Of a DNA stretch of 64,000 nt, positions 3,023-61,603 are shown piece after piece. The translations under genes and the position numbers were made by a program. The notes beneath the pieces are model-generated. The model had not been told where the DNA came from. It made no database searches and saw only the letters and a program-made list of their open reading frames with translations. The first letter of the stretch is position 1, and the number at the start of each line of letters is the position of its first letter. Origin of the DNA: Flavobacteriales bacterium (GTDB taxonomy: Bacteria; Bacteroidota; Bacteroidia; Flavobacteriales_F; PHOS-HE28); assembly GCA_016705545.1 (NCBI GenBank), contig JADIYA010000006.1, positions 198,353-262,352 on the forward strand. The letters run 5' to 3'.

Positions 3023-3726
3023 ATGCGAGGTACTTTGTACCTCATGCGTGCATTCCTTACATGGCTGGTCATCCTCGGATTCTTCGTTCCAGCCTCCGGG
3101 CAGGATTCACCGGAGCAGCGCCTGCGCCTTCCCATCTGGACCTTTCATCAGAAGCACACCACGACGGTCGGTCTGAATATCGGACTGGGAACAGTTCGCG
3201 AGACCTCTCGTCATGTAAAGACCATCGGCGTTCATGCCGAAGCCATTGGTGTCGGCCTTTTCCTGCTCCTGGCCCCACGTGAAGCCACGGCTCGCGACTC
3301 GGTGGAGTGGGGGCAGCGGCTCGTTGATTCGCTGAGCGAGCGCATTTACGGCGTGAGTCTTTCACCGCTTGGCGCTGTTTGCGATTGCGCCGTGCATGGT
3401 CTGAGCCTGAATGGGGGCGGGGGCTATCAGCGACAGGTGAATGGACTATCAGCTGCATTTGCGATCAACCAAGTTGATCTGATGAGCGGTGTACAAGCTG
3501 CGTGTCATGTCAATATCGCCTTTCGTGCTTCAGGGCTGCAAGCCTCTATGATCCACAATCAGCGGTGGTGCTCCATGGTGTTCATGTGAGCGCTATGAAC
3601 AGAACCGCTCACGGATACGGGCTTCAGTTCGGCATTTACAACCAAGCAAAGCGCCTACGCGACGTACAGATCGGGATCTGGAACGTGAATCAGCGGCGCA
3701 AGTGGCCATTGATCAACTGGGCATGA
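3023..3726 (+). CDS. Repeat-containing putative surface protein (GLQxGxxN-type repeats, LA_2272-like) with an apparent frameshift near 3530-3590
   Basis: Two overlapping ORFs (3023-3589 and 3502-3726) carry the same repeat: GLNIGLG, GLSLNGGGG, GLQFGIYNQAKRLRDVQIGIWNVNQ...PLINWA. The N-terminus (MRAFLTWLVILGFFVPASG) looks like a signal peptide. The family assignment is from memory and is tentative. Confidence 0.35.
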
Positions 3727-3740
3727 GGGGAGAAAACAAC

Positions 3741-3764
3741 GAGCGGCCCTGACTTGGGCCGCTC
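3741..3764. terminator. Bidirectional stem-loop terminator between convergent genes
   Basis: GAGCGGCCC-tgactt-GGGCCGCTC forms a perfect 9-bp GC-rich stem. It sits between the plus-strand gene ending at 3726 and clpC ending at 3786. Confidence 0.5.
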
Positions 3765-3785
3765 GCAATAGAACTCTCGATTCGT

Positions 3786-6398
3786 TCACTCCGAGGGCGG
3801 CAATTCCTTGGTCTCATCGCCTTCGCCCTTGGCGATCTTCTTCTTGCCCTTGGTCACCTTGATGGCCACATCGGTCTTCTCCTTGTTCAGGCCGATGGAG
3901 ATCTTATCGCCTTCCTCCACGCCCTGGTTGATGATCTCCTCGGCCATGGGGTCCTCGATGAACTTCTGGATGGCGCGCTTAAGCGGCCGTGCCCCGAACT
4001 TCTCGTCGTAGCCCTTTTCGGCGAGGAAGTCCTTGGCCTCATCAGTCAGCTTGAGGTCGTAGCCCAGTTCGCTGATCCGCTTGTAGAGGTGGCCCAGTTC
4101 GATGTCGATGATCTTGTGGATGTCCTCGCGCTTGAGCGAGTTGAACATGATGATGTCGTCGATGCGGTTGAGGAACTCCGGAGCGAAGGCCTTGCGCAGT
4201 GCCTTCTCGATTATGCCGCGGTTGGCCTCGTCCTGCCCGGCGGTCTTGGCGCTGGTGCCGAAACCCACGCCCTTGCCGTAGTCGCTGAGATCGCGCGCCC
4301 CGATGTTCGAGGTCATGATGATGATGGCGTTCTTGAAATCGATGTGGCGCCCGAGGCTATCGGTCATCTTGCCATCGTCGAGGGCCTGCAAAAGCAGGTT
4401 GAACACGTCAGGGTGCGCCTTCTCGATCTCATCAAGCAGGATGATGGAGTAGGGGCGGCGACGAACCTTTTCGGTGAGCTGCCCGCCTTCCTCGTAGCCC
4501 ACATAGCCCGGAGGCGCACCGATTAGGCGGCTCACGGAGAACTTCTCCATGTATTCGCTCATATCGATGCGAATCATGGCATCATCGGTGTCGAAGAGGT
4601 AGCGGGCGAGCTCCTTGGCGAGCTGTGTCTTGCCCACGCCAGTGGGACCGAGGAAGATGAACGAGCCGATGGGTCGGTTGGGGTCCTTCAGGCCCGCACG
4701 ATTCCGCTGGATCGCCTTCACCACTTTGGCCACGGCCTCTTCCTGCCCGATCACCTTGCCCTGCATCTCCTCCTTCATCCGCTTGAGCTTGCCGCTCTCC
4801 TTCTCCGCGATGCGCGTCACAGGGATGCCGCTCATCATGGCCACCACTTCGGCCACGTTCTCTTCCGTCACAGTGGTGCGGTTGGTCTTGCTCTCTTCCT
4901 CCCAGGCTTTCTTGGCCTTCTCGAGCTCTTCGAGCAACTGGCGTTCGCGGTCGCGGAGCTTGGCGGCCTCTTCGTAACGCTGGCTGCGCACCACCTTGTT
5001 CTTCTCGTCCTTGATGTCCTCGATTTTCTGCTCCACATCGAGGATGCTCTTGGGCACCACGATGTTGCTGATGTGGACCCGGCTGCCGCTCTCATCCATG
5101 GCGTCGATGGCCTTGTCCGGCAAGTGGCGGTCGGTGATGTAGCGCGCGGTGAGCTTCACACAGGCTTGGATGGCTTCCGGGGTGAAGTTCACGTTGTGGT
5201 GATCCTCGTACTTCTCCTTGATGTTGTTCAGGATCTGGATGGTCTCGTCAACGCTCGTAGGCTCCACGAGCACCTTCTGGAAGCGGCGCTCGAGGGCACC
5301 GTCCTTCTCGATGTACTGCCGGTACTCATCCAAGGTGGTGGCCCCGATGCACTGGATCTCGCCGCGCGCAAGGGCGGGCTTGAACATGTTGCTGGCGTCC
5401 AAGCTGCCGCTGGCCCCGCCCGCGCCCACGATGGTGTGGATCTCATCGATGAAGAGGATCACGTCCGGGCTGTTCTCCAGTTCGTTCATCACCGCCTTCA
5501 TGCGCTCCTCGAACTGGCCGCGGTACTTGGTGCCGGCCACCAGGCTGGCGATATCGAGCGCCACGATGCGCTTGTTGAAGAGCACGCGGCTCACCTTGCG
5601 CTGGATGATGCGCAGGGCCAAGCCCTCAGCGATGGCGCTCTTGCCCACGCCGGGCTCGCCAATCAGCACGGGGTTGTTCTTCTTGCGCCGGGAAAGGATC
5701 TGGCTCACGCGCTCAATCTCCTTCTCTCGACCGACGATCGGGTCCAGCTTGCCATCCTCGGCCAGTTTGGTGAGATCCCGGCCGAAGTTGTCGAGCACAG
5801 GGGTCTTGCTCTTGCTGTCACCTTGCTTGCGCTGCCCGCCTCCGCCTTGGAAACTGCCGCTCTCCTCGTCATCATCGTCTGCGCTCTGTGGCCCTTGGGC
5901 GCGCGGCCCACTGGTGCGGGTAGGTTTATTGCCCTTCCCGGTGTAGGTACTGCCGCCATCGGCCAGGATCACGTCGAGCTCGTGCTTCACGGTCTCGTAA
6001 TCCACGCTGAACTTGCGCAAGGTGCGGGTGGCCAGGTTGTCCTCATCCTTCAGGATACTGAGCAACAGGTGCTCTGTGTCGATGCTCTGGCTCTTGAAGA
6101 GCTTGGCCTCGAGGTAGGTGATCTTCAGCATCTTCTCCACCTGCTTCAGCAGATTGATGCTCTCCTTGTCCTTGGGCCGGGTGGCGCTGGGCGGTTCCAT
6201 GCCCCGCTCAACCGCCTTGCGGAGCTCATCCACATCGACCTCCAGTCGCTGCAGGATGCGCAACGCATTGCCTTCGTTGTGCCGCAGCAAGCCGAGCAGC
6301 ACGTGCTCGATGCCGATGAAGTTGTGTCCGAGGCGAAGGGCCTCTTCGCGGCTGTAGCCGATGATGTCTCGGACTCGGGGGGTGAAGCGGGCGTCCAT
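3786..6398 (-). CDS. clpC: ATP-dependent Clp protease ATP-binding subunit ClpC (class I AAA+ chaperone)
   Basis: The 870-aa product has duplicated Clp_N repeats (ALRLGHNFIGIEHVLLGLL), two AAA+ modules (GEPGVGKSAIAEGLA and GPTGVGKTQLAKELA) and a UVR-like motif (YEEAAKLRDRERQL) in the middle region. Confidence 0.85.
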   Translation of the reverse strand: MDARFTPRVRDIIGYSREEALRLGHNFIGIEHVLLGLLRHNEGNALRILQRLEVDVDELRKAVERGMEPPSATRPKDKESINLLKQVEKMLKITYLEAKLFKSQSIDTEHLLLSILKDEDNLATRTLRKFSVDYETVKHELDVILADGGSTYTGKGNKPTRTSGPRAQGPQSADDDDEESGSFQGGGGQRKQGDSKSKTPVLDNFGRDLTKLAEDGKLDPIVGREKEIERVSQILSRRKKNNPVLIGEPGVGKSAIAEGLALRIIQRKVSRVLFNKRIVALDIASLVAGTKYRGQFEERMKAVMNELENSPDVILFIDEIHTIVGAGGASGSLDASNMFKPALARGEIQCIGATTLDEYRQYIEKDGALERRFQKVLVEPTSVDETIQILNNIKEKYEDHHNVNFTPEAIQACVKLTARYITDRHLPDKAIDAMDESGSRVHISNIVVPKSILDVEQKIEDIKDEKNKVVRSQRYEEAAKLRDRERQLLEELEKAKKAWEEESKTNRTTVTEENVAEVVAMMSGIPVTRIAEKESGKLKRMKEEMQGKVIGQEEAVAKVVKAIQRNRAGLKDPNRPIGSFIFLGPTGVGKTQLAKELARYLFDTDDAMIRIDMSEYMEKFSVSRLIGAPPGYVGYEEGGQLTEKVRRRPYSIILLDEIEKAHPDVFNLLLQALDDGKMTDSLGRHIDFKNAIIIMTSNIGARDLSDYGKGVGFGTSAKTAGQDEANRGIIEKALRKAFAPEFLNRIDDIIMFNSLKREDIHKIIDIELGHLYKRISELGYDLKLTDEAKDFLAEKGYDEKFGARPLKRAIQKFIEDPMAEEIINQGVEEGDKISIGLNKEKTDVAIKVTKGKKKIAKGEGDETKELPPSE

Positions 6399-6556: not shown

Positions 6557-6652
6557 GTGGGGTCGGCTGGATCCTGTTGGCAGGGTACCTTCGGGCGCCC
6601 GAAAAAGAAGGGTCAAAACGGGTCGGCAACGGCCACTACGCAGCCATCCATC

Positions 6653-9252
<2,600 letters not shown>

Positions 9253-9268
9253 CCCACATACACGACCG

Positions 9269-10504: not shown

Positions 10505-11002
10505 TCAAATGAGAGCGCTTAGGCTATCCGCCAGCGCATCCATGCTATCGCACCAGCCGCCAATGTGACTATCGCGCGAGGCTGCGGTGGCCAAGCCCGT
10601 CTGGCGGAACTCGAGCCGAGTGCGTGGGCCTTCGTCATGCAGGTCAACGGTGACGAGCGTGCGGTGGCGCGCAGGGTTCACGTCCACAGGCGCTTTCTCC
10701 CATTGGTGCGTGAACGCCAGATGTGCGATGGGCCTTACCACCGTGTATGTGCCATAGCTAGGAATGTCCTCGCCATTGGGCGTGCGGAGCACCACGCGCC
10801 AGTTGCCGCCCTCGCGCAGGTCCGTTTCTGCGCTGATGGTGCTAAAGGCCGCACAGCCGAACCAGTGCACCAGCATGGCGGGCGTGACCCAAGCATCCCA
10901 AACCAAATGGCGCGGCGCATTGAACACACGGGTGATGAGGATCTCGTCCGGTGCGGGAGTGGAGACAGCATTGCGCGAACGCTGGGCGCTTGCTTGGTCC
11001 AT
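10505..11002 (-). CDS. SRPBCC (Aha1/AHSA1-like) domain protein
   Basis: Family signature ILITRVFNAPRHLVWDAWVTPAMLVHWFG...TYTVVRP, about 165 aa. Confidence 0.7.
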   Translation of the reverse strand: MDQASAQRSRNAVSTPAPDEILITRVFNAPRHLVWDAWVTPAMLVHWFGCAAFSTISAETDLREGGNWRVVLRTPNGEDIPSYGTYTVVRPIAHLAFTHQWEKAPVDVNPARHRTLVTVDLHDEGPRTRLEFRQTGLATAASRDSHIGGWCDSMDALADSLSALI

Positions 11003-11032
11003 GCCCGCAAATCTATCTGCTCGTGAAGAAGG

Positions 11033-11416
11033 TCAACCCTTGGTCATCGTCACAAGCCGCTTATGGTGCAATACGTACGACCACACCAGCACGCCGATGA
11101 AGAGGAACATCGGCGTCCATTGCGCCACAGGGTCGCCCACCGCAGCAAAAGAGACCATCGCAGCCACCAGATCGATGAGGAAACCGAAGTAGGCCCACTC
11201 TTTCACCCGAGCTGGCACCATGGGAAGCAGGATCACGACAGCGCCCAGCACCTTGGCATAGGAGATCAGCTTGATGAAGTAGAGCGGGTATCCCAGGTGG
11301 TCGTGCAGCATGGCCACGGATTGGGGCATTAGCGTAATTCCGCCGATGGAAGAGTAGATCATGAACGCGCTGAAGAGCGCGGTGACGATCCAGTAGGTGA
11401 GGTTGAGGCGTTTCAT
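11033..11416 (-). CDS. DoxX family membrane protein
   Basis: A 127-aa product with four predicted TM helices and a DoxX-like pattern (LISYAKVLGAVVILLP...FGFLIDLVAAMVSF). Its start overlaps the upstream gene by 4 nt. Confidence 0.6.
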   Translation of the reverse strand: MKRLNLTYWIVTALFSAFMIYSSIGGITLMPQSVAMLHDHLGYPLYFIKLISYAKVLGAVVILLPMVPARVKEWAYFGFLIDLVAAMVSFAAVGDPVAQWTPMFLFIGVLVWSYVLHHKRLVTMTKG

Positions 11417-11919
11417 GTGGCAGGTTGGGGGTTGTCTCGGGTCGAGCCCGGGATGACGACGGTTGAGCGTTGGGCCCTCAACAGCGCGTGAAGCCTATCA
11501 AGGTTCTCCTCGTTTGCGCGTTCGATGAAAACCCGGATCGGGGCTAGTTCCTCAGCCGTGTCGAAGCGCATGATCCAGTCGATGCGTGTGCCGCCGTCCA
11601 CCTCCGAGAAGGTCACCATCGCCTTGTAGAAATGCATCTCCTTCAGGTGGTCGAACTCCAGGTGGATGTGCGCCTCTATCCGTTTGAAGACGCACGTGTT
11701 GTTGAAGTCCATGCCATTCGGTCCATGCATGGTGAATTCCCACAGCCCCTCAGGCTTCAGCTCGAAGCGATGGAAGGTATTGGTGAAGCCATGCGGCCCC
11801 CACCAGATCACAAGCTGCCCGGGATCGGTCCATGCCGCGTATAACAGCTCGCGTGGTGCCGCGATCACGCGGCTAGTTCTCACTTCGCGAGCGGCCTCTT
11901 GATCCTCTGATCTTCTCAT
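11413..11919 (-). CDS. SRPBCC (Aha1-like) domain protein
   Basis: Internal start MRRSEDQEAAREVRTSRVIAAPRELLYAAWTDPGQLVIWWGPHGF. The longer ORF running to 12108 overlaps the upstream DUF1801 gene. Confidence 0.65.
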   Translation of the reverse strand: MRRSEDQEAAREVRTSRVIAAPRELLYAAWTDPGQLVIWWGPHGFTNTFHRFELKPEGLWEFTMHGPNGMDFNNTCVFKRIEAHIHLEFDHLKEMHFYKAMVTFSEVDGGTRIDWIMRFDTAEELAPIRVFIERANEENLDRLHALLRAQRSTVVIPGSTRDNPQPAT

Positions 11920-11936
11920 TTCCTGATTCTCTGATC

Positions 11937-12317
11937 CTACTTCACCGGCCAGCGAACTTCGATCTCCGCCACCTTCGATTTCACAATCGCCATCACCAGA
12001 GCTGCGGGCAACGGCTTGTCTGGCGTGAACTGAATGGCGCCTTTGCTGGTCTTGAATTCCTTGAGTTGTTCCTCGAAGCCGGTCGGCACCGATCCGTACA
12101 GCGCGCAATGGGCCTTGGCTGCTCCGATGTACAGCATGGGGTGCCCGTTGTACCTGAAGCCGGGCATTCCATAGCCGAAGTGTTCCTCGATGCCCGGCGC
12201 CGCAGCGAGGATCTGCTTGCGCAGCTTCATCAAGCCAGCGCGTTGGTCCTTCGGTAGTGCGGCCAGGTAGTCGCGCGCTGTTGGGTTCATCCCATAGGTG
12301 GGGTTGGGCGCGGTCAT
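11937..12317 (-). CDS. DUF1801 (YdhG-like) domain protein
   Basis: A 126-aa product with the pattern KLRKQILAAAPGIEEHFGYGMPGF...GAAKAHCALYG. Confidence 0.6.
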   Translation of the reverse strand: MTAPNPTYGMNPTARDYLAALPKDQRAGLMKLRKQILAAAPGIEEHFGYGMPGFRYNGHPMLYIGAAKAHCALYGSVPTGFEEQLKEFKTSKGAIQFTPDKPLPAALVMAIVKSKVAEIEVRWPVK

Positions 12318-12910
12318 TGGTGAAAAGCCTCTCCGCGTTCCATCATGGCGATGAACAATGCAAGGCGCTTGGCTCGCGTCTCATCCCTCTTAGCGGTCTG
12401 CAAGCGGTGTAGGAATGCATAGCGCTTGGTGCCAGTGAGCGTATCGAAGAACCCTTTGGCCTTTGTGTTCTTCTTCAGTGCGACCGCCAGATCGGGTGGT
12501 ACTTGGATGGTGCTGGCGGGCGCGTAGGCCTTGTCCCACTGGCCGTTGGACTTGGCGACCTTCACGGCAGCAAGCCCAGCCGGACGCATCAGCTTCGCCT
12601 TGATCAACTGCTGCACCTTCTTCCTGTTGATCTCGCTCCAGATGCTGCGCGGCGACCGTGGCGTGAAGCGCTGGAGGAAGGTCTTGTCGTCGTTGCTCCG
12701 TTTCACACCATCGATCCAGCCGTGGCACAGCGCAACTTCCACGGCTTCGGCATAGGTCACGGATGGTATCGCGCTGCCCTTCTTGGCGATGCTGATGTAG
12801 ATGCCGGGGGAAACGGTCCCGTATTTATCCAGCCAGGCATCCAAGGCTTGCGCGGTATCGAAGCCGACAACCTCGCGGTCTGTGGGAATCGCCGGTGCTT
12901 GCTTCTTCAT
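12314..12910 (-). CDS. YdeI/OmpD-associated family (DUF1905-like) protein
   Basis: Sequence ...ALCHGWIDGVKRSNDDKTFLQRFTPRSPRSIWSEINRKKV...KRYAFLHRLQTAKRDETRAKRLALFIAM. The internal start is MKKQAPAIP. Confidence 0.6.
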   Translation of the reverse strand: MKKQAPAIPTDREVVGFDTAQALDAWLDKYGTVSPGIYISIAKKGSAIPSVTYAEAVEVALCHGWIDGVKRSNDDKTFLQRFTPRSPRSIWSEINRKKVQQLIKAKLMRPAGLAAVKVAKSNGQWDKAYAPASTIQVPPDLAVALKKNTKAKGFFDTLTGTKRYAFLHRLQTAKRDETRAKRLALFIAMMERGEAFHQ

Positions 12911-12921
12911 GGGTGCCAAGC

Positions 12922-13383
12922 TCAACCGACCAGCCAATTCAATTCGGTGCGATAATCCTTAGGGTCCTTCACCTCGTCAGGGTTGTTCAGGTAGCGCTCG
13001 AAGAACCGGCCGTCCTCGGGCAGTTTCCGCTCGCGTACCCAGTCTTGCAGTTCGCGCCAGGCATCACCCATCCGCTCGTACGGACCTTGGTATACAGCAC
13101 GCACCACCTTCGCTCCGGGCAGGGCGCTATTCTTCACGCGTCCAGCTTCGTTCACGGACTTCGATACTGGGAAGCCGATCTCGAAGTCGAAGGTGTCCCC
13201 GGGGCGGCGATGGTGGTAGCTGAACATCGGTCCGGCCGGTTGCAGGCCTTGGTCGGTAAGCGCTTGGATGATCTCTTGGATCGCGGGGTCCATGTACTTG
13301 GGCATGTCGCGGCCGGAGATGACCAAGTGGATGGTGGCTGCTCGCTGTTCGGTTGTGGTGATGACTTCGGGTGGGGTGATCAT
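12922..13383 (-). CDS. GyrI-like small-molecule-binding domain protein
   Basis: A 153-aa product resembling the AraC effector-binding/GyrI-like fold (AVYQGPYERMGDAWRELQDWV...FFERYLNNP). Confidence 0.6.
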   Translation of the reverse strand: MITPPEVITTTEQRAATIHLVISGRDMPKYMDPAIQEIIQALTDQGLQPAGPMFSYHHRRPGDTFDFEIGFPVSKSVNEAGRVKNSALPGAKVVRAVYQGPYERMGDAWRELQDWVRERKLPEDGRFFERYLNNPDEVKDPKDYRTELNWLVG

Positions 13384-13424
13384 GGGGTGAAGATCAGACG
13401 ATCAGATGCTGAAAGGGCATCCGA

Positions 13425-13814: not shown

Positions 13815-13820
13815 GGAGGG

Positions 13821-14300: not shown

Positions 14301-14333
14301 GAAGGTTGCAGTCTAGGTAAGTCTGTATGAGGT

Positions 14334-14750: not shown

Positions 14751-14790
14751 GTTGCATGGAGTTGTGGCGCCAGATTCCGCGCCCGTACGA

Positions 14791-15672: not shown

Positions 15673-15675
15673 GGC

Positions 15676-19884: not shown

Positions 19885-19942
19885 CGACCTTCTGGATCGA
19901 CCCGACAGAGTGGTATGATGTGGATTGGCCATTTCCGTTGAT

Positions 19943-25689: not shown

Positions 25690-25814
25690 ATCGGTTCGCT
25701 TCACGTCCGTACAAATGGCCGCTGAAGGGCTGCGAAAGTAGGCCCATGGCAGTGAACCTTTGGACCATGCCGCGCCGAAGGCCCAAGCCTGCCAACGCCC
25801 ACGTCAGCCTGACC

Positions 25815-49248: not shown

Positions 49249-51485
49249 GTGGATGCCAAGACGCTGACCAAAGTCACCTGTTACCACTGCGGCGACCCTT
49301 GTGCTGATGAGCACCGCGTGCATGACGGCAAGGACTTCTGCTGCCATGGCTGCGAAGTGGTCTTCGACCTGCTGAGTGAAGCTGGGCTCTGCGACTACTA
49401 CGCGCTTGAGAAACAGCCGGGCGTGAAACAGGAATCCAGTGCTGACGAGCAGCGCTTGGAGCTCTTCGCCCTGCCCGAAGTGCGCGAGAAGCTCGTGGAG
49501 TTCAGCGAAGCGGGCATCACCCGAGCCCGGTTCCGCATTCCGCAGATGCACTGCAGCAGCTGCATATGGCTGCTGGAGAATCTGCATCGGATTGAGCCGA
49601 GCATCATCCGGTCACGCGTGAGCTTCACCGACAAAGAACTCTCCATCACGTTCCGCGAGGAGAAGTTGCCATTGCCCCAGCTGGTGAAGCTCTTGCGGCG
49701 GATCGGCTATGGCCCGCAGCTCACCGCCGGCAAGGACACCGGCCGCGCCGACCAGGTGCCGCGCATGCTCTACATCCGGCTGGGCGTGGCGGGCTTCATC
49801 TTCGGCAATACCATGCTGTTCAGCTTCCCGGAATACCTGGGTGCTGATGGCGAAGCCCAACTGCGTGTCGGCTTTCAATGGCTGTCGGCACTGTTCTCGG
49901 TGCCCGTCGTCCTTTTCCTCAGCACCGACTACTTCCGAGCGGCTTGGGCAGGCCTGCGAAGCAAGCAGGTGAACATCGATCAGCCCATCGCCCTGGGCAT
50001 CATGGCGTTGTGGTTCAGGAGCCTCCATGACGTGATTACCGGCGCCGGCCCTGGCTACTTCGACTCGCTGGGGTAAGGGACCAAGAACTGGTGCCCGTGG
50101 ATGCCGTACTACGCGAAGGCACCGGACACATCGACAACAGCTTCATCACCGGCGAACCGCTGCCTGTGCGCAAACAAGCGGGCGACACCATCAAGGCCGG
50201 TGGCCGACAGCGCGGCGCTGCTATTGAATTGGAAGTGCTGCGCTCCTTCGCCGATAGCCGGTTGAAGCGCCTATGGGCCGAGCAGAGCGGTGGTCAAGAA
50301 CGCCCGGCCATGCCGCGCCTGATCGATCAAGTGGCGCGGCGCTTCACACTGGCGGTGCTGCTCATCGCGCTGGGCGCGGGCCTTTATTGGTGGGGCAAGG
50401 ATGCCCGCATGATCTGGCCAGTGGTCACAGCTGTGCTTATCGTGGCCTGCCCTTGCGCGCTGGCATTGAGCATGCCCTTCGCTTACGGACATACCATTCG
50501 GCTGCTCGGTAAGCGCGGCCTGTTCCTGCGGGATGCGGAAGTGGTTGAGCGCATGGCCCACGTGGATGCGGTGCTCTTCGACAAGACCGGAACGCTCACC
50601 GAACGTGAGGCGCACCAGGTCGATTGGCATGGCATCAAGCTCTCCCGTGAGGATGAACAACGCATCGCAGCGCTGGCCAGGAACAGTGCGCACCCACTGA
50701 GCGCGGTCCTAGCAGGAAAACTGAAGAAGTCGTTGAAGCCCGATCAGGATCATCTCGCTCCGCGCGCGATGACAGAGGTAATGGAACAGATTGGCCAAGG
50801 CATCATGGGCGAAGTGGCTGGCCTGCCGATCCGAATCGGTTCGGCGGACTTCACGGGCGGTGAAGCAGCGGTGCGTTCCGCTGGCGAGGCCCATGTGCAC
50901 GTCTCCTTCGGTGGCGTGCATCGCGGGCATTTCGCCATCCGGAAGCAGGCCCGCTCGGGCATCGTGGAAGCGGTGAGACGCTTGGGGGCATCGCTGCGTG
51001 TGGGCCTCATCACCGGCGACCATCAGGTGGACCCCGACCTCGCCGAGGTGTTCCCGATCGGAAGCATCCGCATGCGGTGCGCACCTGACGAGAAGAGCGA
51101 AGCAGTTAAAGGACTGCAGCGCGATGGCCGCCGCGTGCTCATGGTGGGCGATGGCCTCAACGATGCCGGAGCATTGGCTCAAGCCGATGTGGGTGTCACT
51201 GTGACAGAGACCACCGCGGCCCTCACCCCTGCCAGCGATGCGATCATGGATGCCGACAGCCTGCAACAGCTCCCCCATTTCTTGCGGATGACACGACGCG
51301 CCCGGCGCATCGTGCTCGCCAGCCTGTGCATCTCCCTGCTGTACAACATCACTGGCGTGTCCATCGCGGTGGCTGGCCACATGACCCCGCTCTTCGCTGC
51401 CATCCTGATGCCGCTGAGCAGCGTGAGCGTGGTGGGCTTCGTGACAGTGGCCACGATGATCGCCGCGCGCAACGCACACCAGTAA
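49249..51485 (+). pseudogene. Heavy-metal (Cu) translocating P1B-type ATPase of the CcoI/FixI type. It is disrupted by a frame break, and the TM4 / early actuator-domain segment appears to be missing (~50040-50100).
   Basis: ORF 49249-50076 has the CcoI N-terminus (CYHCGDPC...KDFCCHGC) and three TM helices, ending ...GPGYFDSLG*. ORF 50091-51485 starts inside the actuator domain (VPVDAVLREGTGHIDNSFITGEPLPV), then CPCALALS (CPC transport site), DKTGTLT (phosphorylation site), GDGLNDAGAL and the final TMs. Only ~8 codons separate the two parts, where ~60-70 aa (TM4 plus the start of the A-domain) would be expected. Confidence 0.55.
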
Positions 51486-54232: not shown

Positions 54233-54298
54233 ACGTCATATATCGGATTGACTGGTCCGATGATTTTTGTCACGCGCAACAGACAAGAGCGCCTACCC

Positions 54299-54765
54299 AT
54301 GAGACTGCTGAAGACCTCCCTCGCGAAAGTGACCCTTTTTGCCGGCTTTGCTGCAATAACTGCTTGCGGTGGCGGCACCGCATCGACACCTCCTGGCGCG
54401 GGTGGCCTCCAGGTGCTGCAGCCGCTTCTGAGGAAGCTGCCCCAGCCGGATTGATCACTGCAGCCGAGATCACCCTAGGCGAAATTGATCAAGCCATGGT
54501 GGAGAAGGGAAAAGCCACCTACGATGTGAAGTGCCAAGCCTGCCACAGCACTGGCCCGAACCGCGTGGTGGGGCCCGGCTGGAAAGGCGTGACCGAGCGT
54601 CGTAAGCCGGAATGGATCATGAACATGATGCTCAACATCGATGTGATGCTCGAGACCGATCCCGAAGCCCAAAAGGGACTTGAAGAGTGCCTCGTACGCA
54701 TGCCCAACCAAGGCCTGAGCAAGGACCAGGGCCGCGAGGTGCTTGAGTTCATGCGGACTCTCTGA
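54299..54765 (+). CDS. Monoheme c-type cytochrome lipoprotein (cy-c of the clade II nos cluster) with an apparent -1 frameshift at ~54395-54412
   Basis: The lipoprotein signal MRLLKTSLAKVTLFAGFAAITACGGG lies in ORF 54248-54454. The heme domain ...KATYDVKCQACHSTGP... (CxxCH) lies in ORF 54226-54765. The two frames meet at a G-rich stretch (gcgggtggcctcc). Confidence 0.6.
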
Positions 54766-54805
54766 AGCCTCCCCCCGCCCACCAACAAACCACAACCAAT
54801 CAATC

Positions 54806-56803
54806 ATGAAACGACCGCTTCTTCTAACCGGCACCGCTTCAGGCGTCATCGCCTGCGCCTTCGTGCTGTTGAACAGCCTGCCCGGCTGCCGCCCATCGGG
54901 CACCACCAAGAGCGTGGTTACCGGTGATGCCGCTTCGAAAGTGTACGTGAAGCCCGGAACGCACGATGAGTTCTACAATCTGGTGAGCGGCGGATTCAGC
55001 GGCCAGCTCGCGGTCTATGGATTGCCCAGTGGGCGCCTGCTGCGCGAGGTCCCCGTATTCAGCGTGGATCCCGAGACCGGATATGGCTACAGCGAAGAGA
55101 CCAAGGGCATGCTCACCACCAGCCATGGGTTCATTCCTTGGGACGACAGCCACCACCCGGAGCTGTCGCAAACCGATGGCATCCCGGATGGCAAGTGGTG
55201 CTTCATCAACGGAAATAACACGCCTCGAATCGCACTGATCGACCTCGGCACCTTCCGTACAAACAGCATCATCGAGATCCCCAACAGTGCGGGTAACCAC
55301 AGTTCCCCTTTCACTACGGGCAACAGCGAGTACGTGGTGGCCGGCACCCGATTCAGCGTGCCCATGGGCGATGACGCTTCGCGCGATGTGCCCATCAAGA
55401 CCTACAAGGAGAACTTCAAGGGCAACGTGAGCTTCATCCATCCGGAACCGGAGACGGGCAAGATGTCCATCGCCTTCCAGGTGATCACACCGGGGATGAA
55501 CTTCGACCTGTCGCACACCGGCAAGGGCGTGAGCGAGGGCTGGTTCTTCTTCAGCTGCTACAACACGGAGCAGGCGTACAGCCTGTTGGAGGTGAATGCC
55601 AGCCAGCGCGACAAGGACTTCATCATGGCCGTGAATTGGAAGCTGGCCGAACAACTCGCCAAGGACGGCAAGGGCAAGCGCGTACCCGGCAAGCACCACA
55701 GCAACTGGTGGAACGAGAAGACCCATAGTTCGGAAACGACCGTGTATGAGGACGTGCTGCAACTTGATCCCAAGGATCATCCCGGACTGGTCTATTTCAT
55801 GCCCTGTCCGAAGAGCCCGCACGGCTGCGATGTGGACCCCACCGGCAAGTACATCGTGGGAAGCGGCAAACTGGCCGCGCTGATCCCGGTGTTCAGTTTC
55901 GAGAAGATCCAGAAGGCCATTGCGGGCAACGAGGTCGAAGGCGACTTCGCCGGCATCCCGGTACTGAAGTATGAAAGCGTGCTGCATGGCGAGGTGAAGA
56001 AACCTGGACTCGGGCCCCTGCACACTGAGTTCGATGCCAACGGCAACGCCTACACCAGTTTCTTCGTGAGCAGCGAGATCGTGAAGTGGAACGTGGAGAA
56101 GCTGGAGGTGGTGGACCGCGTGCCCACTTATTACAGCATCGGCCATCTGTGCGTGCCTGGAGGCGACAGCAAGAAGCCTTGGGGCAAGTACGTGATCGCC
56201 TACAACAAGATCACCAAGGACCGCTACCTCCCCACCGGCCCTGAGCTCACGCAGAGCGCGCAGCTCTACAGCATCGATGGGGATAAAATGGAGCTGCTGC
56301 TTGATTTCCCCACCACCGGTGAGCCGCACTATGCCCAGGCCATCCCTGCCGAATTGGTGAAGCCGCGTGAAGTGAAGTTCTTCAAGATTGAGGAGAACGA
56401 GCATCCCTTCGCTGCCAAGGGTGAGAAGGACACCAAGATCGAACGCCGTGGAAAAGAGGTGCATGTTTGGATGACCACCATCCGTTCGCACTTCGCGCCT
56501 GACAACATCGAGGGTGTCAAGCTGGGCGATGAGGTGTACTTCCACATCACCAACTTGGAGCAGGACTGGGACGTACCGCACGGCTTCGCCATAAAGGGGG
56601 CTGCCAACGCTGAGCTCCTGTTGATGCCCGGCGAGACACAGACCCTGAAATGGGTGCCCACACGAGTTGGAGTGACACCGATGTACTGCACGGACTTCTG
56701 CTCCGCGCTGCATCAAGAGATGCAGGGCTACGTGCGCGTTTCACCTGCCAATAGCAATGTGCCCTTGACCGCTCTCACGGTTTCCGTGGACGCAGAACTC
56801 TAG
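54806..56803 (+). CDS. nosZ: Nitrous-oxide reductase NosZ, clade II (Sec-type signal)
   Basis: Internal ATG at 54806 (MKRPLLLTGTASGVIACAFVLL). Seven-bladed propeller motifs (DSHHPELSQTDG, GNNTPRIALID) and the C-terminal CuA site CTDFCSALHQEMQGY. Confidence 0.9.
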   Translation: MKRPLLLTGTASGVIACAFVLLNSLPGCRPSGTTKSVVTGDAASKVYVKPGTHDEFYNLVSGGFSGQLAVYGLPSGRLLREVPVFSVDPETGYGYSEETKGMLTTSHGFIPWDDSHHPELSQTDGIPDGKWCFINGNNTPRIALIDLGTFRTNSIIEIPNSAGNHSSPFTTGNSEYVVAGTRFSVPMGDDASRDVPIKTYKENFKGNVSFIHPEPETGKMSIAFQVITPGMNFDLSHTGKGVSEGWFFFSCYNTEQAYSLLEVNASQRDKDFIMAVNWKLAEQLAKDGKGKRVPGKHHSNWWNEKTHSSETTVYEDVLQLDPKDHPGLVYFMPCPKSPHGCDVDPTGKYIVGSGKLAALIPVFSFEKIQKAIAGNEVEGDFAGIPVLKYESVLHGEVKKPGLGPLHTEFDANGNAYTSFFVSSEIVKWNVEKLEVVDRVPTYYSIGHLCVPGGDSKKPWGKYVIAYNKITKDRYLPTGPELTQSAQLYSIDGDKMELLLDFPTTGEPHYAQAIPAELVKPREVKFFKIEENEHPFAAKGEKDTKIERRGKEVHVWMTTIRSHFAPDNIEGVKLGDEVYFHITNLEQDWDVPHGFAIKGAANAELLLMPGETQTLKWVPTRVGVTPMYCTDFCSALHQEMQGYVRVSPANSNVPLTALTVSVDAEL

Positions 56804-56829
56804 GACCGACTCACATCACCCGACAGTGA

Positions 56830-56859
56830 CCACGGCCCCGGTTCATGCCGGGGCCGTGG
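56830..56859 (+). other. Very stable 12-bp GC stem-loop between nosZ and nosB (intra-operon attenuator or mRNA-stabilising hairpin)
   Basis: CCACGGCCCCGG-ttcatg-CCGGGGCCGTGG starts 27 nt after the nosZ stop. There is no downstream T-run. Confidence 0.5.
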
Positions 56860-56893
56860 CCCTGAAAGGACAGATCTCATCGACAAGAACACC

Positions 56894-57463
56894 ATGAAGC
56901 CCATCTCCCGCATCATGATCGCCGTGGCGGCGCTGAGCCTCCTCGTGCTGCTCTTCGTGCCCATCTGGCGAATCGACCTCCAAGCCCCCCAATATCCGGA
57001 GGGGCTCTACCTGCAGATCTTCGCCGATCGCTTCGCAGGCGATGTGGAGAAGATCAACGGCCTTAACCACTACATCGGGATGGGGCATATCCACGATGAT
57101 ATGTTCCCTGAGTTCGCGGTGCTCCCCAAATTGCTGATGGCGCTGGCTGCTCTTGGCGTCCTGGCCGCGCTCTGGGGCAAGCGGTGGGCCCTGTTCATGG
57201 GCCTGGTCACGCTTTCGCTCTTCGGCTTGTGGGCGCTTTGGGACATGTACCGCTGGGGCTACGAGTACGGTCACAACCTCGATCCACGAGCCGCTATCAA
57301 GGTGGAGGACATGACCTATCAGCCGCCGCTCATCGGCCACAAGCAATTGCTGAACTTCGATGCTTGGTCAACCCCCGATATCGGTGGCTGGGTGCTCTTC
57401 GGTGTGATGGCGCTGCTGATCGGCGTGTATATCATGGAGATCCGTTTCAACCCTCACAAGTGA
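56894..57463 (+). CDS. nosB: NosB-like membrane protein (the transmembrane protein found directly downstream of clade II nosZ)
   Basis: A 189-aa product with 4 TM helices. Its stop overlaps the nosL start (TGATG at 57461-57465). Confidence 0.55.
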   Translation: MKPISRIMIAVAALSLLVLLFVPIWRIDLQAPQYPEGLYLQIFADRFAGDVEKINGLNHYIGMGHIHDDMFPEFAVLPKLLMALAALGVLAALWGKRWALFMGLVTLSLFGLWALWDMYRWGYEYGHNLDPRAAIKVEDMTYQPPLIGHKQLLNFDAWSTPDIGGWVLFGVMALLIGVYIMEIRFNPHK

Positions 57464-57906
57464 TGAAGGCCCGCAACATCCTGTTCGCCCTGCTGCTCAT
57501 GCCCGCGCTCTGGTCGTGCGGCCAGCGGACGCCCACGATCGATTTCGGCAAGGCTGAATGCGCGCATTGCCGCATGAATGTGGTGGACCGTCAATTCGGT
57601 GCCGCATTGGTGACAGAGAAAGGCCGGCAGTACGTATTCGATGATGTTTCCTGCATGGTGCATTTCGTGGAGAAGGGCTCCGTTGCAGAGGACCAGGTGA
57701 AGGCCTGGTACATCTGTGATCATGCCGAACCCGGCAACTTGATCGATGCCACCACTGCGCACTATCTCCATGGCCCTGCATTCCGCAGTCCGATGCGCGG
57801 AGACGTGGCGGCCTTCTCGGATGAAGCCGCTCGGTCCGCTGCAGCATCCAAAGAGGGATCAACCACCATGGATTGGTCGAAGGTGCGCCAACAATTGTCT
57901 GAGTAA
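57463..57906 (+). CDS. nosL: Copper chaperone lipoprotein NosL
   Basis: MKARNILFALLLMPALWSCG (lipobox), then CAHCRMNVVDRQFGAALVTEKGRQYVFDDVSCMV (NosL family). Confidence 0.75.
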   Translation: MKARNILFALLLMPALWSCGQRTPTIDFGKAECAHCRMNVVDRQFGAALVTEKGRQYVFDDVSCMVHFVEKGSVAEDQVKAWYICDHAEPGNLIDATTAHYLHGPAFRSPMRGDVAAFSDEAARSAAASKEGSTTMDWSKVRQQLSE

Positions 57907-57914
57907 TCCAACCG

Positions 57915-59287
57915 ATGCGGATAGGGATGATCACGCTACTGGCCTGCATGGTGCACGGGCCTTTGGCAGCGCATAGCTGGGCTTATCGGTCTGGATCGTC
58001 AGGCACGCTGCAGCAAATGATCGGGAAAGCCGCGGCAGGAGATACCATCAGGGTCGAAGGCACCGTGCGTGAGGGCTCCATCCACGTGGACCGTCCACTC
58101 GTGCTGATCGGTGGCGCCAATGCGGTGATCGACGGCACTGGGAAGGGCGACGCTCTGCGTATCACAGCGGACAACGTCACGGTGCGGGCCTCACCATCAG
58201 CGGGTCGCGCCGCAGCAACCTCGACGACCTGGCAGGCATCAAAGTGAATGAGTGCCGCGGCGTGGTGATCGCAGACAACTTTATTGACCAGTGCTTCTTC
58301 GCCATCTACCTCAGCGGGGTGAAAGATGCCCTGATCGAAGGCAACACCGTGCTGGGCGAACCGGGCGACGAGGACCATATGGCCAATGGCATCCACTTAT
58401 GGAAATGCAGCAACGCCACCATCCGCAGCAATCGGATCGAATACCACCGGGACGGCATCTACTTCGAGTTCGTCACCGACTCGCGCATCACCGGCAACAC
58501 CTCCTTGCACAATCTGCGCTACGGCCTGCACTTCATGTTCAGTCACCGAGACGCGTACGAGGACAACCGATTCGAGGATAACGGTGCCGGCGTGGCGGTG
58601 ATGTTCAGCAAGGAGATCGCCATGCGCCGCAACCGCTTCCTGACCAACCGGGGCGCGAGCGCTTACGGCTTACTGCTGAAGGAGATCAACGATGGCGAGA
58701 TCATCGGCAATGCTTTCCTGGACAATACCACAGGGATCATGATCGATGGCTGCAATCGGATCAATGTGCGCGGCAACGAGTTCCGGCTGAACGGATGGGC
58801 GCTTCGGCTCTTCGCCAATGCCATCGACTGCGACTTCCAAGGGAACACCTTCACAGGCAATACCTTCGACGTGAGCACCAATGGATCGCTGGTCCCCAAT
58901 ACCATGAACGGGAACTTTTGGGATCGATACTCGGGCTATGATCTGGACCGTGATGGCTTTGGCGATGTGCCGCACCGACCGCTGGGGTTCTTCACCCTGC
59001 TGGTCGAGAAACAGCCCTACGCCATGGTCTTCTCGCGCAGCCTCTTTGTCTCGTTGCTCGACCGCGCCGAGCGCCTGATCCCGTCGCTGACGCCTGAGAG
59101 CATGAAGGACGATAAGCCGATGATGCGCCCGCCAGTGCTGTTGGGCAAAATCGATGATCGAGTTGAAGGGCATGCTGCGGAGCCTGCAGCAGTCCCTGCT
59201 TCCGAAGGCGCATCCGGAGAGGTCCTGTTGATCTGCGCCTTTGCGGCGGTCCTCGTTTCAAGGCGGCTAATCGTGCCCCATGCCTGA
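57915..59287 (+). CDS. nosD: NosD (periplasmic right-handed beta-helix copper-insertion protein) with an apparent -1 frameshift at ~58187-58190
   Basis: ORF 57915-58247 (GDTIRVEGTVREGSIHVDRPLVLIG...ALRITADNVTVR) and ORF 58244-59287 (parallel beta-helix repeats NTVLG.., IRSNRIEYHRDGIYFEF, ITGNT...) meet at the G-run cgggcc. Adding one G restores ...VRGLTISGSRRSNLDDLAGIKVNECRGVVIADN. Confidence 0.75.
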
Positions 59288-60014
59288 CGCGCGCATCACC
59301 TTCGAGGGAGTCGGAAAGCGCTACGGCAAGCTCTGGGCCTTGCGCAACGTGGAGTGCGCATTCCATCCCGGAGAGGTCGTCATGCTCATCGGCCCCAATG
59401 CCAGCGGTAAGACCACGTTGATCAAGTGCCTGCTTGGATTGGTGAGGCCCACTGAGGGTCGCATCACGGTGAACGGTGAAGCCATCGGCAGCGACCCGGC
59501 CTACCGCACGGCCATCGGCTACATGCCACAGATCTCACAGTATCCAGCTACGCTCACCATCGGCCAATTGCTCGAGATGATGGCCGACGTCCGCGGGATG
59601 AGCAACAACGAACCCGACGACAGACTCGTGGAAGGACTTGGATTGTCCGCTCAGTTGAATAAGCGCCTTTCGAGCTTGAGCGGAGGGACCAAGCAGAAGG
59701 TGAGCGCCGTTCTCGCCTTGCGTTCGCGTCCGAGCATCCTGGTGATGGACGAGCCGACAGCGGGCCTCGATCCGCTATCGTCCAAGCGGGTTCTGGAACG
59801 CGCTGCCGCCGTGCGTGATGCAGGAGGAACAGTGCTTATCACCTCGCACCTGATGGAGGAAGTGGAAGCACTTGCCGATCGGGTGGCCTACTTGGAGGAG
59901 GGCAGCTTGAGGTTCCTTTTGCCGGTTCAGGAGATCCTTGTACGCGCGGGTACGAAGCGCTTGTCGGAGGCTTTGCCGAGGATGTTGGAATCCAGAGCAC
60001 TATGCAATGCCTGA
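59280..60014 (+). CDS. nosF: NosF, ABC transporter ATP-binding protein
   Basis: Walker A GPNASGKTT, ABC signature LSGGTKQKV and Walker B ILVMDEP. Confidence 0.8.
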   Translation: MPDARITFEGVGKRYGKLWALRNVECAFHPGEVVMLIGPNASGKTTLIKCLLGLVRPTEGRITVNGEAIGSDPAYRTAIGYMPQISQYPATLTIGQLLEMMADVRGMSNNEPDDRLVEGLGLSAQLNKRLSSLSGGTKQKVSAVLALRSRPSILVMDEPTAGLDPLSSKRVLERAAAVRDAGGTVLITSHLMEEVEALADRVAYLEEGSLRFLLPVQEILVRAGTKRLSEALPRMLESRALCNA

Positions 60015-60089
60015 TGAAGTCTGGCAGTTGTTGGAGACTTCGCGCAAGGTGGATGACTGCCGATCTTGAACGAACATAGGGCACTTCGA

Positions 60090-60857
60090 ATGCTGAAAGT
60101 CTTCAAATACACGCTCATCGATCTGGCGCGCAACCGCTTCGTCTTGGGATATGCGGTGCTGATGCTGCTGGTCGCACAAGGCCTATTCTCATTGGAAGGC
60201 GACCCGACGAAGGCTTTGCTCAGCCTGGTGCAAGTGGTCATGGCGCTGGTACCGTCGATCGCATTGGTATTCACCGTGGTCTATTTCTACGACATCCAGG
60301 AATTCACGCAACTGCTGGCCGTGCAGCCCATGCGTCGCGGCGCCATCCTCGGCGGACAGGTCTTGGCATTGGCAGTCGCGCTGCTGCTTGCCCAGGCCAT
60401 TGGTCTCGGCTTGCCTCTGCTGGTCCACTCCCCTACCCTCGCTGCACTTGTGCTATCGCTCAGTGGCTCTGGCCTGGTGCTGGTCTTCATCTCCCTTGGC
60501 GCCTTGATCGCGCTGAAGCAACGGGAGAAGGCTCGAGGTGTCGGCGTGGCGCTGGCCATTTGGTTCCTCCTCGTTCTGGTGTACGATGCTTTGTTGATGT
60601 GGGGCATGTTCACGCTCAGTGACTATCCCATAGAGCCCTTCGTAGTGCCTTTTGCCGGTGTCAATCCCATCGACCTCGCGCGCATCATGGTAATGCTGCA
60701 GGTGGACCTGGCCGCCATGATGGGCTACAGCGGCGCCATCTACAAGAACTTCTTCGGCACTCAGATGGGCATGGCCGTGGCAGGGCTGATCATGATGGTC
60801 TGGGTGCTCGTGCCAGGCTGGTCAGCCATGCGCGCCTTCAATCGGAAAGACCTCTGA
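60090..60857 (+). CDS. nosY: NosY, ABC-2 type permease
   Basis: Six TM helices, positioned directly after nosF. The alternative start is 60066. Confidence 0.7.
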   Translation: MLKVFKYTLIDLARNRFVLGYAVLMLLVAQGLFSLEGDPTKALLSLVQVVMALVPSIALVFTVVYFYDIQEFTQLLAVQPMRRGAILGGQVLALAVALLLAQAIGLGLPLLVHSPTLAALVLSLSGSGLVLVFISLGALIALKQREKARGVGVALAIWFLLVLVYDALLMWGMFTLSDYPIEPFVVPFAGVNPIDLARIMVMLQVDLAAMMGYSGAIYKNFFGTQMGMAVAGLIMMVWVLVPGWSAMRAFNRKDL

Positions 60858-60949
60858 ACGGGCCGATGTCAGTTCATTGGATGATGTTGGTCATATTACG
60901 GATTAAGTTGTCCTCGTTCTTTCGATGCGGCCAAACCAACCAACCATCC

Positions 60950-61603
60950 ATGAAGACCTTCACTTCGACAAGCGCATTGCTGTTAGCATTCGCGCTCCCT
61001 TGCTTAATCGCCTGTGGCGGCGCTGAGACGCCTGCATCGGCTGAACCCGCATCATCCGGAAACGAACCTGCCGCCGGCCAGAGCGCCGTGAAGGACGACC
61101 TTAGCCAGAAGAACGTGGTGCAGATCGCCGTGGCATCACCGGATCACACCACTTTGGTGAAAGCCGTGCTCCACGTCAAGTATGAGGATGTGCTCGTGAA
61201 CGCCGGGCCATTCACCGTGTTCGCGCCCACCGATGCCGCATTCAATGCGCTGCCGGCTGGTACGCTTGATGACCTCATGAAGCCGGAGAACAAGGCAGCC
61301 TTGCAGAACATCCTGGAATACCATGTGGCGGTTGGCGTGTTCGCACCGGACAAGATGGCCAACGGACGCAAGCTGAACATGGCTAACCTGGCCGATACGA
61401 AGTTCACGGTGGGTGAAGACGGAAGTGTAATGATCAACGATGCGAAGGTGCTGGGCACGGCGCCCGCTTCGAATGGCCTGGTAGTGGTGATTGACAAGGT
61501 GCTCTGCCACCGCAGTGAACGATGGGAAGTCGCTGGTCCTAGGCTTTGGTACGGGAACGGTGAAAGTCAGCAGGGGCGTCCGCTAGGGCGCCCTTGTTGT
61601 TGA
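60950..61603 (+). CDS. Fasciclin (FAS1) domain lipoprotein. The true stop is possibly ~61515 (apparent readthrough tail).
   Basis: MKTFTSTSALLLAFALPCLIACGG (lipobox). The FAS1 domain reads VVQIAVASPDHTTLVKAV...FTVFAPTDAAFNALPAGTLDDL...VVVIDKVL. The tail after VIDKVL (CHRSERWEV...) is atypical. A -1 frame gives VLLPPQ*, and a hairpin with a T-rich tract lies at 61563-61592 inside the extended ORF. Confidence 0.55.
   Translation: MKTFTSTSALLLAFALPCLIACGGAETPASAEPASSGNEPAAGQSAVKDDLSQKNVVQIAVASPDHTTLVKAVLHVKYEDVLVNAGPFTVFAPTDAAFNALPAGTLDDLMKPENKAALQNILEYHVAVGVFAPDKMANGRKLNMANLADTKFTVGEDGSVMINDAKVLGTAPASNGLVVVIDKVLCHRSERWEVAGPRLWYGNGESQQGRPLGRPCC

Follow-up and report, generated by a model that had tools for sequence, protein, structure and literature searches.

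Seven of eight apparent frameshifts in a contig of an uncultured wastewater Flavobacteriales bacterium look like one-base consensus errors

Results

Frame Breaks in the Window and in Other Assemblies

The window (the whole stretch of 64,000 nucleotides that was analyzed) contains, on its forward strand, a repeat lipoprotein gene, gyrA, genes for two giant GSDH-PKD-PA14 proteins (A and B), a P-type cation ATPase gene, cytochrome c and nosD genes of a nos cluster, and a gene encoding a fasciclin-domain lipoprotein. A preliminary description listed eight frame breaks among these genes. All eight are present, within ~5 nt of where they were first placed, and each is repaired by one added base, which joins the upstream frame to frame -1.

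Same-species assemblies were used for comparison. They comprise short-read contigs (MEGAHIT/SPAdes-style) from several wastewater samples and two NCBI MAGs, and, with five or more independent samples or projects represented, they cover window positions 1-61787 at 99.3-99.8% DNA identity. The comparison was made between assemblies rather than read pile-ups, and the assemblies represent other strains, 0.2-0.7% divergent.

Seven of the missing bases are private to the window (8283, 30820, 33936, 35052, 54404, 58186, and 61503). Each site was compared with 2-6 independent assemblies, and at all seven the base is present and the gene intact in every other same-species assembly. Elsewhere, length differences between the window and its relatives are confined to a deletion of 172 bp, an in-frame indel of 3 nt, and a small number of non-coding changes. 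For example, there is one gap in 20,345 bp against contig L114, which is the break in giant protein A, and one gap in 20,451 bp against another same-species contig. Among the other same-species assemblies themselves, we found zero coding indels. Three isolated 1-nt differences between them (22974, 46047, and 54774) are all non-coding. At 54774, in the interval between cytochrome c and nosZ, the sequence is CCCACCC in L122 and L124 and CCCCCC in the window and L123; because another assembly has the same length, this site was left out of the count of private errors.

gyrA

The gyrA gene (6653-9252) is split into two open reading frames (6557-8452 and 8302-9252), with its Pfam domains divided between them. 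The window has TT at 8283-8285 where every relative has TTT, which bears out the T-run contraction first proposed near 8285. This is the only coding indel against L001 (93% DNA identity) and the only indel of any kind in 20 kb against L131, L132, L133, L135, L140, and L143 (99.5-99.7%). The gene is intact in all same-species assemblies at this locus, and the repaired GyrA is 98% identical to the intact 866-aa protein P0001.

Giant Proteins A and B

Giant protein A (28917-32608) has one break. Relatives read ACATACCCGG at 30820 where the window reads ACAT-CCTGG, and a C>T change lies 3 nt downstream. The break had been ascribed to a C-run; it is private to the window, but the base lost is a lone A. 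Assemblies L116-L120 carry the same longer state, with an intact gene of 1221-1230 aa in each, and after repair the protein can be aligned over its full length with its paralogue, giant protein B.

Giant protein B (32679-36381) has two breaks. At 33936-33938, GGG or GGA has become GG, position 33936 being strain-variable (G/A). At 35052, CAC has become CC, and a lone A was lost (GATCACCAAG to GATC-CCAAG). These breaks were initially attributed to a T-run near 33941 and a C-run near 35051; both are very probably artefacts, as proposed, but neither run is the one affected. The two paralogues are 60% identical, and their alignment is gap-free at both repairs in giant protein B. Both extra bases and an intact 1234-aa gene were found in L116-L119, L148, L150, and L154.

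The nos Cluster

A lipoprotein cytochrome c gene (54299-54765) lies upstream of nosZ. One frame encodes its signal peptide and lipobox (ITACGGG) and the -1 frame its haem domain; its N-terminus was also found in a homologue. One G is missing at 54404-54406 (GGG to GG): L122, L123, and L124 have GGGTGGGCC, the window has GGGT-GGCC, and the gene is intact in relatives (155-168 aa). In nosD (57915-59287), which is split into 57915-58247 and 58244-59287, one G is missing at 58186-58188 (GGGG to GGG), and tblastn placed the frame switch at 58187. The G-run contractions first read near 54400 and 58188 were thus both correct. NosD (457 aa) is intact in L002 (91%) and in L122 and L123 (99.3-99.5%); for the source contig (MBK6342273.1; 462,659 bp), only the downstream fragment of 363 aa (P0124) is annotated. 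P0372, a complete NosD in that accession series, is only 85% identical and therefore belongs to a different species. What looked like a cluster of indels in nosZ (55481-55496) proved to be an alignment artefact; on translation by hand it is a substitution patch of equal length (QIVTPGV versus QVITPGM).

Fasciclin Gene

The gene encoding the fasciclin-domain lipoprotein (60947-61518; 190 aa in relatives) has lost one base at 61503/61504, where CTT or CTG has become CT. Position 61503 is strain-variable, being T, or G with neighboring changes. Because of the break, the C-terminal LLPPQ* gives way to 33 aa of read-through that stops at 61603, whereas L002, L005, L122, and L123 end in VIDKVLLPP(A)Q*. 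A frameshift near 61510 that had been called only possible is in this way confirmed. Further frameshifts downstream, suggested by indels and a 73-aa gene call in L002, were rejected: the window has an in-frame stop created by substitution, so this region is non-coding. A B12 riboswitch was suspected upstream of the ribonucleotide reductase gene, and Rfam gave no match there at the gathering threshold or at E<=1.

Repeat Lipoprotein Gene

The LA_2272/VC2662-like repeat lipoprotein gene (3023-3726) has its -1 break at ~3555-3560, with an upstream open reading frame at 3023-3589 and a tail at 3553-3726. The C-terminal 57 aa are in the -1 frame with codons still open, and they align with homologues through the break, with a mismatch at only one of the positions that are invariant in the family. 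Single-frame homologues of 205-243 aa occur in other taxa, and the repaired protein gives NCBIfam matches. No tandem repeats were found in the gene. It shows no indel against L140, and the exact 188-aa truncated product was found in ERZ27280351, ERZ1764621, Logan ERR12160659 (all short-read assemblies), and GCA_963851565.1. The break placed at ~3530-3590 in the preliminary description is therefore present, but its explanation as an artefact does not hold. The gene is wholly absent from L001, the 93% relative. In two assemblies, an invariant Asn of the family is Lys in the out-of-frame tail, which is a weak hint of relaxed constraint.

P-type ATPase Gene and Other Candidates

A P-type (ATPase-cat_bd/E1-E2) cation ATPase gene (49249-51485) is divided into open reading frames at 49249-50076 and 50091-51485 by a 172-bp deletion private to the window (50071|50072). 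The deletion was absent from the preliminary list of breaks. Assemblies L122, L123, L124, L125, L128, L148, L150, and L151 have an extra 172-173 nt; the ATPase is intact (802 aa) in six of them, and L125 and L128 contain only part of it. The junction has a microhomology of only 2 nt. Either mis-assembly or a genuine allele of a minor strain may explain the deletion.

Two other regions were suspected and rejected. A codon-usage frame plot suggested one 1,700-aa gene in three frames at 16999-22227, but by Pfam the region holds three genes (GH92, ROK kinase, and MFS transporter), each complete and separate. Suspected frameshifts at 36.6-39.8 kb are separate genes, including PAP2 and DUF7133 (Pfam). 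Neither region has indels against relatives. A genome scan with ThrRS returned only relatives at <=84% amino-acid identity, and a tblastn frame-switch screen there recovered only gyrA and nosD; a metagenome scan with a 732-aa EEP-family open reading frame returned only relatives at <=37%.

Error Signature

The seven private 1-nt indels are without exception deletions (p=0.008), and four of them fall in runs of >=3 nt, against 11% expected (p=0.004); for runs of >=2 nt the count is four or five of seven, which is not significant. At least two lie outside homopolymers, and two or three are losses of a lone A adjoining a C-run. Runs at the break sites are 1-4 nt long, with a maximum of 7 nt over the whole window. 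Two of the private sites are strain-variable (33936 and 61503). Consistent contraction at short homopolymers, as originally claimed for every break, applies to four or five of the seven and fails for at least two, so the generalization was only partly right. An added base that matches its neighbor always resembles a homopolymer repair, and the first reading could not have separated the two.

Codon differences against the short-read contig amount to 123 synonymous and 73 non-synonymous in 15,947 codons. The ratio is the same in the affected genes, read in the repaired frame (33:20), and elsewhere (90:53). No extra stops or further lesions occur downstream of the breaks in these genes. At the level of sequence, there is no sign of decay in the affected genes.

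Discussion

Relatives are intact at seven of the eight sites, and the repeat-gene break is also found in other assemblies. The initial view that the breaks are sequencing indels rather than pseudogenes thus stands for the seven private sites but not for the repeat gene. Since the seven missing bases are present in every other same-species assembly, these breaks look like consensus errors in one assembly and not like dying genes. Very probably, judging from the aligned assemblies, uncorrected consensus deletions account for all seven, the repeat-gene frameshift is real, and the ATPase deletion is a mis-assembly or a minor-strain allele. The consensus of this MAG contig would then retain uncorrected one-base deletions at ~1 per 8 kb, and seven in coding sequence would make intact genes appear frameshifted.

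The mix of errors (G- and T-runs of 3-4 nt, lone A, and strain-variable sites) fits nanopore-type consensus calling together with incomplete polishing of a mixed-strain population. We infer a nanopore-type platform and incomplete polishing for this contig. Homopolymers of 2-4 nt are below the classic problem range of nanopore sequencing. The lone-A losses and strain-variable sites are as indicative of mistakes in consensus building or polishing of a mixed population as of classic homopolymer miscalls. From the accession range (MBK6...) and the contig size, the source MAG presumably belongs to the activated-sludge long-read set PRJNA629478. The activated-sludge long-read MAG pipeline used ONT r941 data, Racon, Medaka, and one Illumina Racon round (PMC8012365), and residual frameshift-causing indels are documented for such long-read assemblies (PMC9262707).

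Authentic mutation is the obvious competing explanation. The relatives are neither the identical strain nor the same clone, which in principle leaves room for each deletion to be a true mutation of this strain; a decaying lineage would then carry many fresh pseudogenes, gyrA among them. The same window does contain a demonstrably real frameshift in the repeat gene, and the 172-bp deletion in the same contig is atypical of consensus error. However, gyrA is essential and its loss is lethal. Seven frameshifts, every one a deletion and none lying outside coding sequence, set against ~250 substitutions, are also hard to reconcile with decay, as are the lack of secondary lesions or non-synonymous excess in the affected genes, the absence of all seven deletions from each of 4-6 sister assemblies, and the zero coding frameshifts among the sisters. 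Authentic mutation is thus highly improbable. Still less probable is that full-length proteins are made from the DNA as written by programmed -1 ribosomal frameshifting or transcriptional slippage. Every break has the same direction (-1), and the repeat-gene break is conserved throughout this species, but no X XXY YYZ slippery heptamer occurs between -40 and +25 nt at any of the eight breaks, or in the upstream frame up to 40 nt away, and runs of 2-4 nt are far short of the ~8-10 nt needed for transcriptional slippage. Two-frame organization is not conserved either: same-species orthologues of the genes at the seven sites are single-frame, and so are repeat-gene homologues in other taxa.

Strain heterogeneity may have caused some of the errors, a base being dropped where co-assembled strains disagree, with the 172-bp deletion as a minor-strain allele. 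Position 33936 is G or A among sister assemblies, 61503 varies with its neighbors, and 30820 has the nearby C>T substitution. Short-read contigs break or diverge in ClpB, and L141 is 98.6% identical with divergent patches, which indicates that strains co-exist. Yet 8283, 35052, 54404, and 58186 are invariant among sister assemblies, and the enrichment in runs of >=3 nt is significant. Heterogeneity as the main source is possible but rather unlikely, and it refines the consensus-error explanation rather than being a true alternative to it.

Known systems offer useful comparisons. Like errors in Oxford Nanopore R9.4.1-based hybrid-polished MAGs, the seven deletions are single-base, deletion-biased, enriched in runs of >=3 nt, and confined to one assembly, and they split conserved genes; unlike those errors, they fall in short runs (2-4 nt) and include two or three lone-A losses and two strain-variable sites. 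Reductive genomes (obligate symbionts and Mycobacterium leprae) also have multiple frameshifted conserved genes within a short stretch, and the fixed, species-wide frameshift in the repeat lipoprotein gene resembles theirs. The window differs in that none of the sister genomes has the seven lesions, an essential gene is hit, there are no secondary lesions, relaxed constraint, or insertion elements, and coding density and synteny are unremarkable. Programmed -1 frameshifting in dnaX and IS3-family transposases shares the direction of the frame change, but the window lacks a slippery heptamer at its breaks, and orthologues do not share the shift. The seven breaks are very probably an ordinary assembly artefact.

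The surface-repeat lipoprotein gene is a separate case. Judged from the four other assemblies with the same product, its frameshift (~3557) is a real mutation fixed in the species, and the gene is most likely a pseudogene or encodes a C-terminally truncated product. It is very unlikely that the arrangement is functional, with either the truncation serving a purpose or a C-terminal repeat/anchor module being added by non-canonical recoding. Because this break proved authentic, not every frameshift in the contig is an artefact, and a blanket rule that all frameshifts are errors would wrongly mend one real and probably pseudogenic break. Repair of reading frames from a single sequence also cannot distinguish homopolymer contraction from loss of a neighboring base.

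On comparison with their orthologues, the affected genes are almost certainly intact in the organism. In practice, gyrA, nosD, the nos-cluster cytochrome c gene, the two giant surface protein genes, and the fasciclin gene should be treated as intact, and the clade II nos (N2O-reduction) cluster should not be scored as defective over the apparent truncation of nosD and the cytochrome.

Frame breaks and comparison with same-species assemblies

The preliminary description, made from the sequence alone, listed eight frame breaks as likely sequencing indels. Three-frame translation of the window recovered all eight at the places described, and one added base repairs each. Together with domain splits and homologue alignments, this shows that the given sequence does contain the breaks. 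The gyrA Pfam domains are divided between ORFs 6557-8452 and 8302-9252; repaired GyrA matches one protein from a JGI metagenome at 98% identity and many labelled "MAG: Flavobacteriales bacterium" at 81-89%. The giant proteins A (28917-32608) and B (32679-36381) are written in two and three ORFs, respectively, and after repair they align end to end at 60% identity, gap-free at every repair. Each of these tandem paralogues (28917-36381) combines a GSDH beta-propeller with PKD domains, a PA14/GLEYA domain, and a C-terminal region that is conserved, and the pair is kept together in all sister assemblies. Cytochrome c has its signal peptide and lipobox (…AITACGGG) in one frame and its haem domain in the next; its closest homologue carries that N-terminus in one unbroken frame. 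The nosD break is at 58187, and the source record already has the split gene, since the downstream fragment is 100% identical to P0124 (MBK6342273.1, annotated on an NCBI MAG contig of 462,659 bp). The fasciclin ORF runs past its conserved C-terminus (…VIDKVLLPPQ, then a stop).

Same-species contigs from independent assemblies were found through exact matches to proteins that are unbroken in the window (L20, radical-SAM, one of 93 aa, an AHSA1 protein, TPR, and PadR). The set included ENA ERZ27280359 k141_3116199 (58 kb), ERZ27280354, ERZ965218 and others (wastewater, k127), Logan assemblies, and two NCBI MAGs, GCA_963851565.1 (779-kb contig) and GCA_020051655.1. Jointly they span window positions 1-61787, with identities of 99.3-99.8%. 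Compared with them, the window has exactly seven private single-base indels, all seven in coding sequence and all seven deletions (p = 0.008 for direction). Relatives have TTT where the window has TT in gyrA (8283), ACATACCCGG for ACAT-CCTGG in giant A (30820), GGG or GGA for GG (33936) and GATCACC for GATC-CC (35052) in giant B, GGG for GG in cytochrome c (54404), GGGG for GGG in nosD (58186), and CTT or CTG for CT in fasciclin (61503). The sites first described were borne out, with three positions and contexts needing correction.

All of these genes are called intact in every sister: GyrA at 866 aa, the giants at 1221-1230 and 1234 aa, cytochrome c at 155-168 aa, NosD at 453-457 aa, and fasciclin at 190 aa (143 aa in locus L123, where the call begins at a later start codon). 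Gaps between the window and the sisters are otherwise rare (a single gap over 20,345 bp in one alignment and a single gap over 20,451 bp in another). No coding frameshifts were found when sister assemblies were compared with one another; their isolated 1-nt differences are only at 22974, 46047, and 54774, all non-coding, and they also differ in a divergent non-coding patch downstream of the fasciclin stop. The non-coding segment from that stop to the ribonucleotide reductase gene (61519-61900) is 91% conserved in L002, a relative with 91% DNA identity, and varies in length among sisters; a riboswitch was suspected there, but a search of Rfam found no match even at E<=1.

Nature of the private deletions

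Runs of at least three bases hold 4 of the 7 sites, compared to 11% expected (p = 0.004). The earlier statement that all breaks are homopolymer contractions is over-generalised, as a lone A was lost between C flanks at no fewer than two sites (30820 and 35052). Such a loss creates a C-run, which the first reading had then "repaired." The intergenic difference at 54774 takes the same form. Strain-variable positions coincide with two sites (33936, G/A; 61503, T/G), and a substitution adjoins the missing base at 30820. No slippery heptamer was found at the sites.

The gyrA gene is essential. In the repaired frame, the "broken" genes have no additional lesions, and they differ from the short-read contig by 33 synonymous to 20 non-synonymous codons, the same ratio as overall (123 and 73 in 15,947 codons). 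Judged from these comparisons, the seven deletions have the pattern of consensus errors, at about one per 8 kb, and not that of gene decay. Reading the breaks as errors rather than pseudogenes holds for seven of the eight sites, where the deletions are private to the window and the sisters are intact; it fails for the repeat lipoprotein gene (3023-3726, forward strand; break near 3557), whose break is common to other assemblies.

Among these is GCA_963851565.1, which has none of the seven private errors, yet matches the window exactly over 3000-3760; an artefact is accordingly rejected at this site. The exact 188-aa truncated product, out-of-frame tail included, also occurs in short-read ERZ27280351 and ERZ1764621 and in Logan ERR12160659. 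The match of the repaired protein to the LA_2272 repeat of NCBIfam spans the break, as does a weak one to VC2662, and homologues (205-243 aa) are in a single frame. In the window, the out-of-frame 57-aa tail agrees with the family alignment at all of its invariant columns. ERZ27280351 and ERZ1764621 have N>K at a family-invariant Asn in this tail, which hints weakly at relaxed constraint. Though present in this species, the whole gene (about 570 bp) is absent from L001, a relative with 93% DNA identity (window 2985-3786 against L001 6902-7026). It is best interpreted as a pseudogene that has become fixed, or as a truncated gene.

One further lesion was absent from the preliminary description. 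At 50071/50072 the window is without 172-173 nt present in eight sister loci (L122-L125, L128, L148, L150, and L151). A P-type cation ATPase of 802 aa (ATPase-cat_bd, E1-E2, and hydrolase domains; 49249-51485) is split by this loss into ORFs 49249-50076 and 50091-51485. The ATPase is called intact in all six sister loci holding the whole gene, and two partial loci also have the 172 nt. Microhomology at the junction is only 2 nt. Either a mis-assembly or a genuine allele of a minor strain could explain the deletion.

Gene content and neighboring features

The window (64 kb, about 60% G+C) is from an uncultured Flavobacteriales bacterium, and gene content was assigned by Pfam and gene calls in relatives. 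It encodes PBP, a trypsin-like T9SS protein, the small repeat lipoprotein, ClpB, GyrA, a TPR protein, a run of small AHSA1/SRPBCC, DUF1801, and GyrI-like genes, GH92, a ROK kinase, an MFS transporter, L20, L35, IF3, ThrRS, and a radical-SAM protein followed by the two tandem 1,230-aa GSDH-PKD-PA14 proteins. PAP2, Omp28, PspC, PadR, the P-type ATPase, Crp/Rrf2 regulators, a clade-II-type nos cluster, and an incomplete ribonucleotide reductase gene crossing the window end are also present.

The short-read contig k141_3116199 (L141; 98.6% overall) stops inside ClpB (4320-5420) and is markedly more divergent there, its mismatches crowding at 5028-5049 and 5403-5413. This pattern is suggestive of strains that co-exist or of recombination in this segment. 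The small-gene run (10505-16887, minus strand) comprises about 13 tightly packed genes, mostly with AHSA1/SRPBCC, DUF1801, GyrI-like, DoxX, and OmdA domains; it has an ArsR/HTH regulator at its head and a shorter version in L001. In the complete Algoriphagus halophilus genome NZ_CP146486.1 (locus L053), one open frame ('+1|4011', from stop-to-stop ORF extraction) matches IF3 (residues 6-181) and L35 (190-258), and may reflect either no in-frame stop between infC and rpmI or an extraction quirk.

The Bacteroidota-style clade II nos cluster (54260-61518) has lipoprotein cytochrome c, nosZ, a membrane protein of 189 aa that matches no Pfam family, nosL, nosD, nosF, nosY, and a fasciclin lipoprotein. 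Regulators of the Crp and Rrf2 families lie upstream, on the opposite strand. In the relatives L005-L008, nosY and fasciclin are separated by an additional gene of 160 aa, which the window species is without. Clustered substitutions in nosZ relative to the sisters (55478-55500; QVITPGM against QIVTPGV) leave the length the same, and BLAST draws compensating gaps; either a short tract of recombination or a local fault in the consensus may account for the patch.

Likely source of the errors

A 162-aa Vsr (very-short-patch repair endonuclease) gene at 25746-26234 (forward strand), overlapping a DUF6787 gene on the opposite strand, is called in two sister assemblies, ERZ27280359 k141_3116199 (L114/L116/L131) and GCA_020051655.1 (L120). 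The usual companion of Vsr is a Dcm-type 5mC methyltransferase, and such methylation could bear on nanopore base-calling errors. No consistent methylation motif was seen at the seven error sites. The contig size and accession block suggest, by our inference, an activated-sludge long-read MAG collection as the source, whose pipeline used ONT r941 reads, Racon, two rounds of Medaka, and one Illumina Racon round (PMC8012365). Assemblies based on R9.4.1 are documented to retain indels that cause frameshifts (PMC9262707). The whole case is biologically ordinary: an assembly-quality issue together with one small authentic pseudogene.
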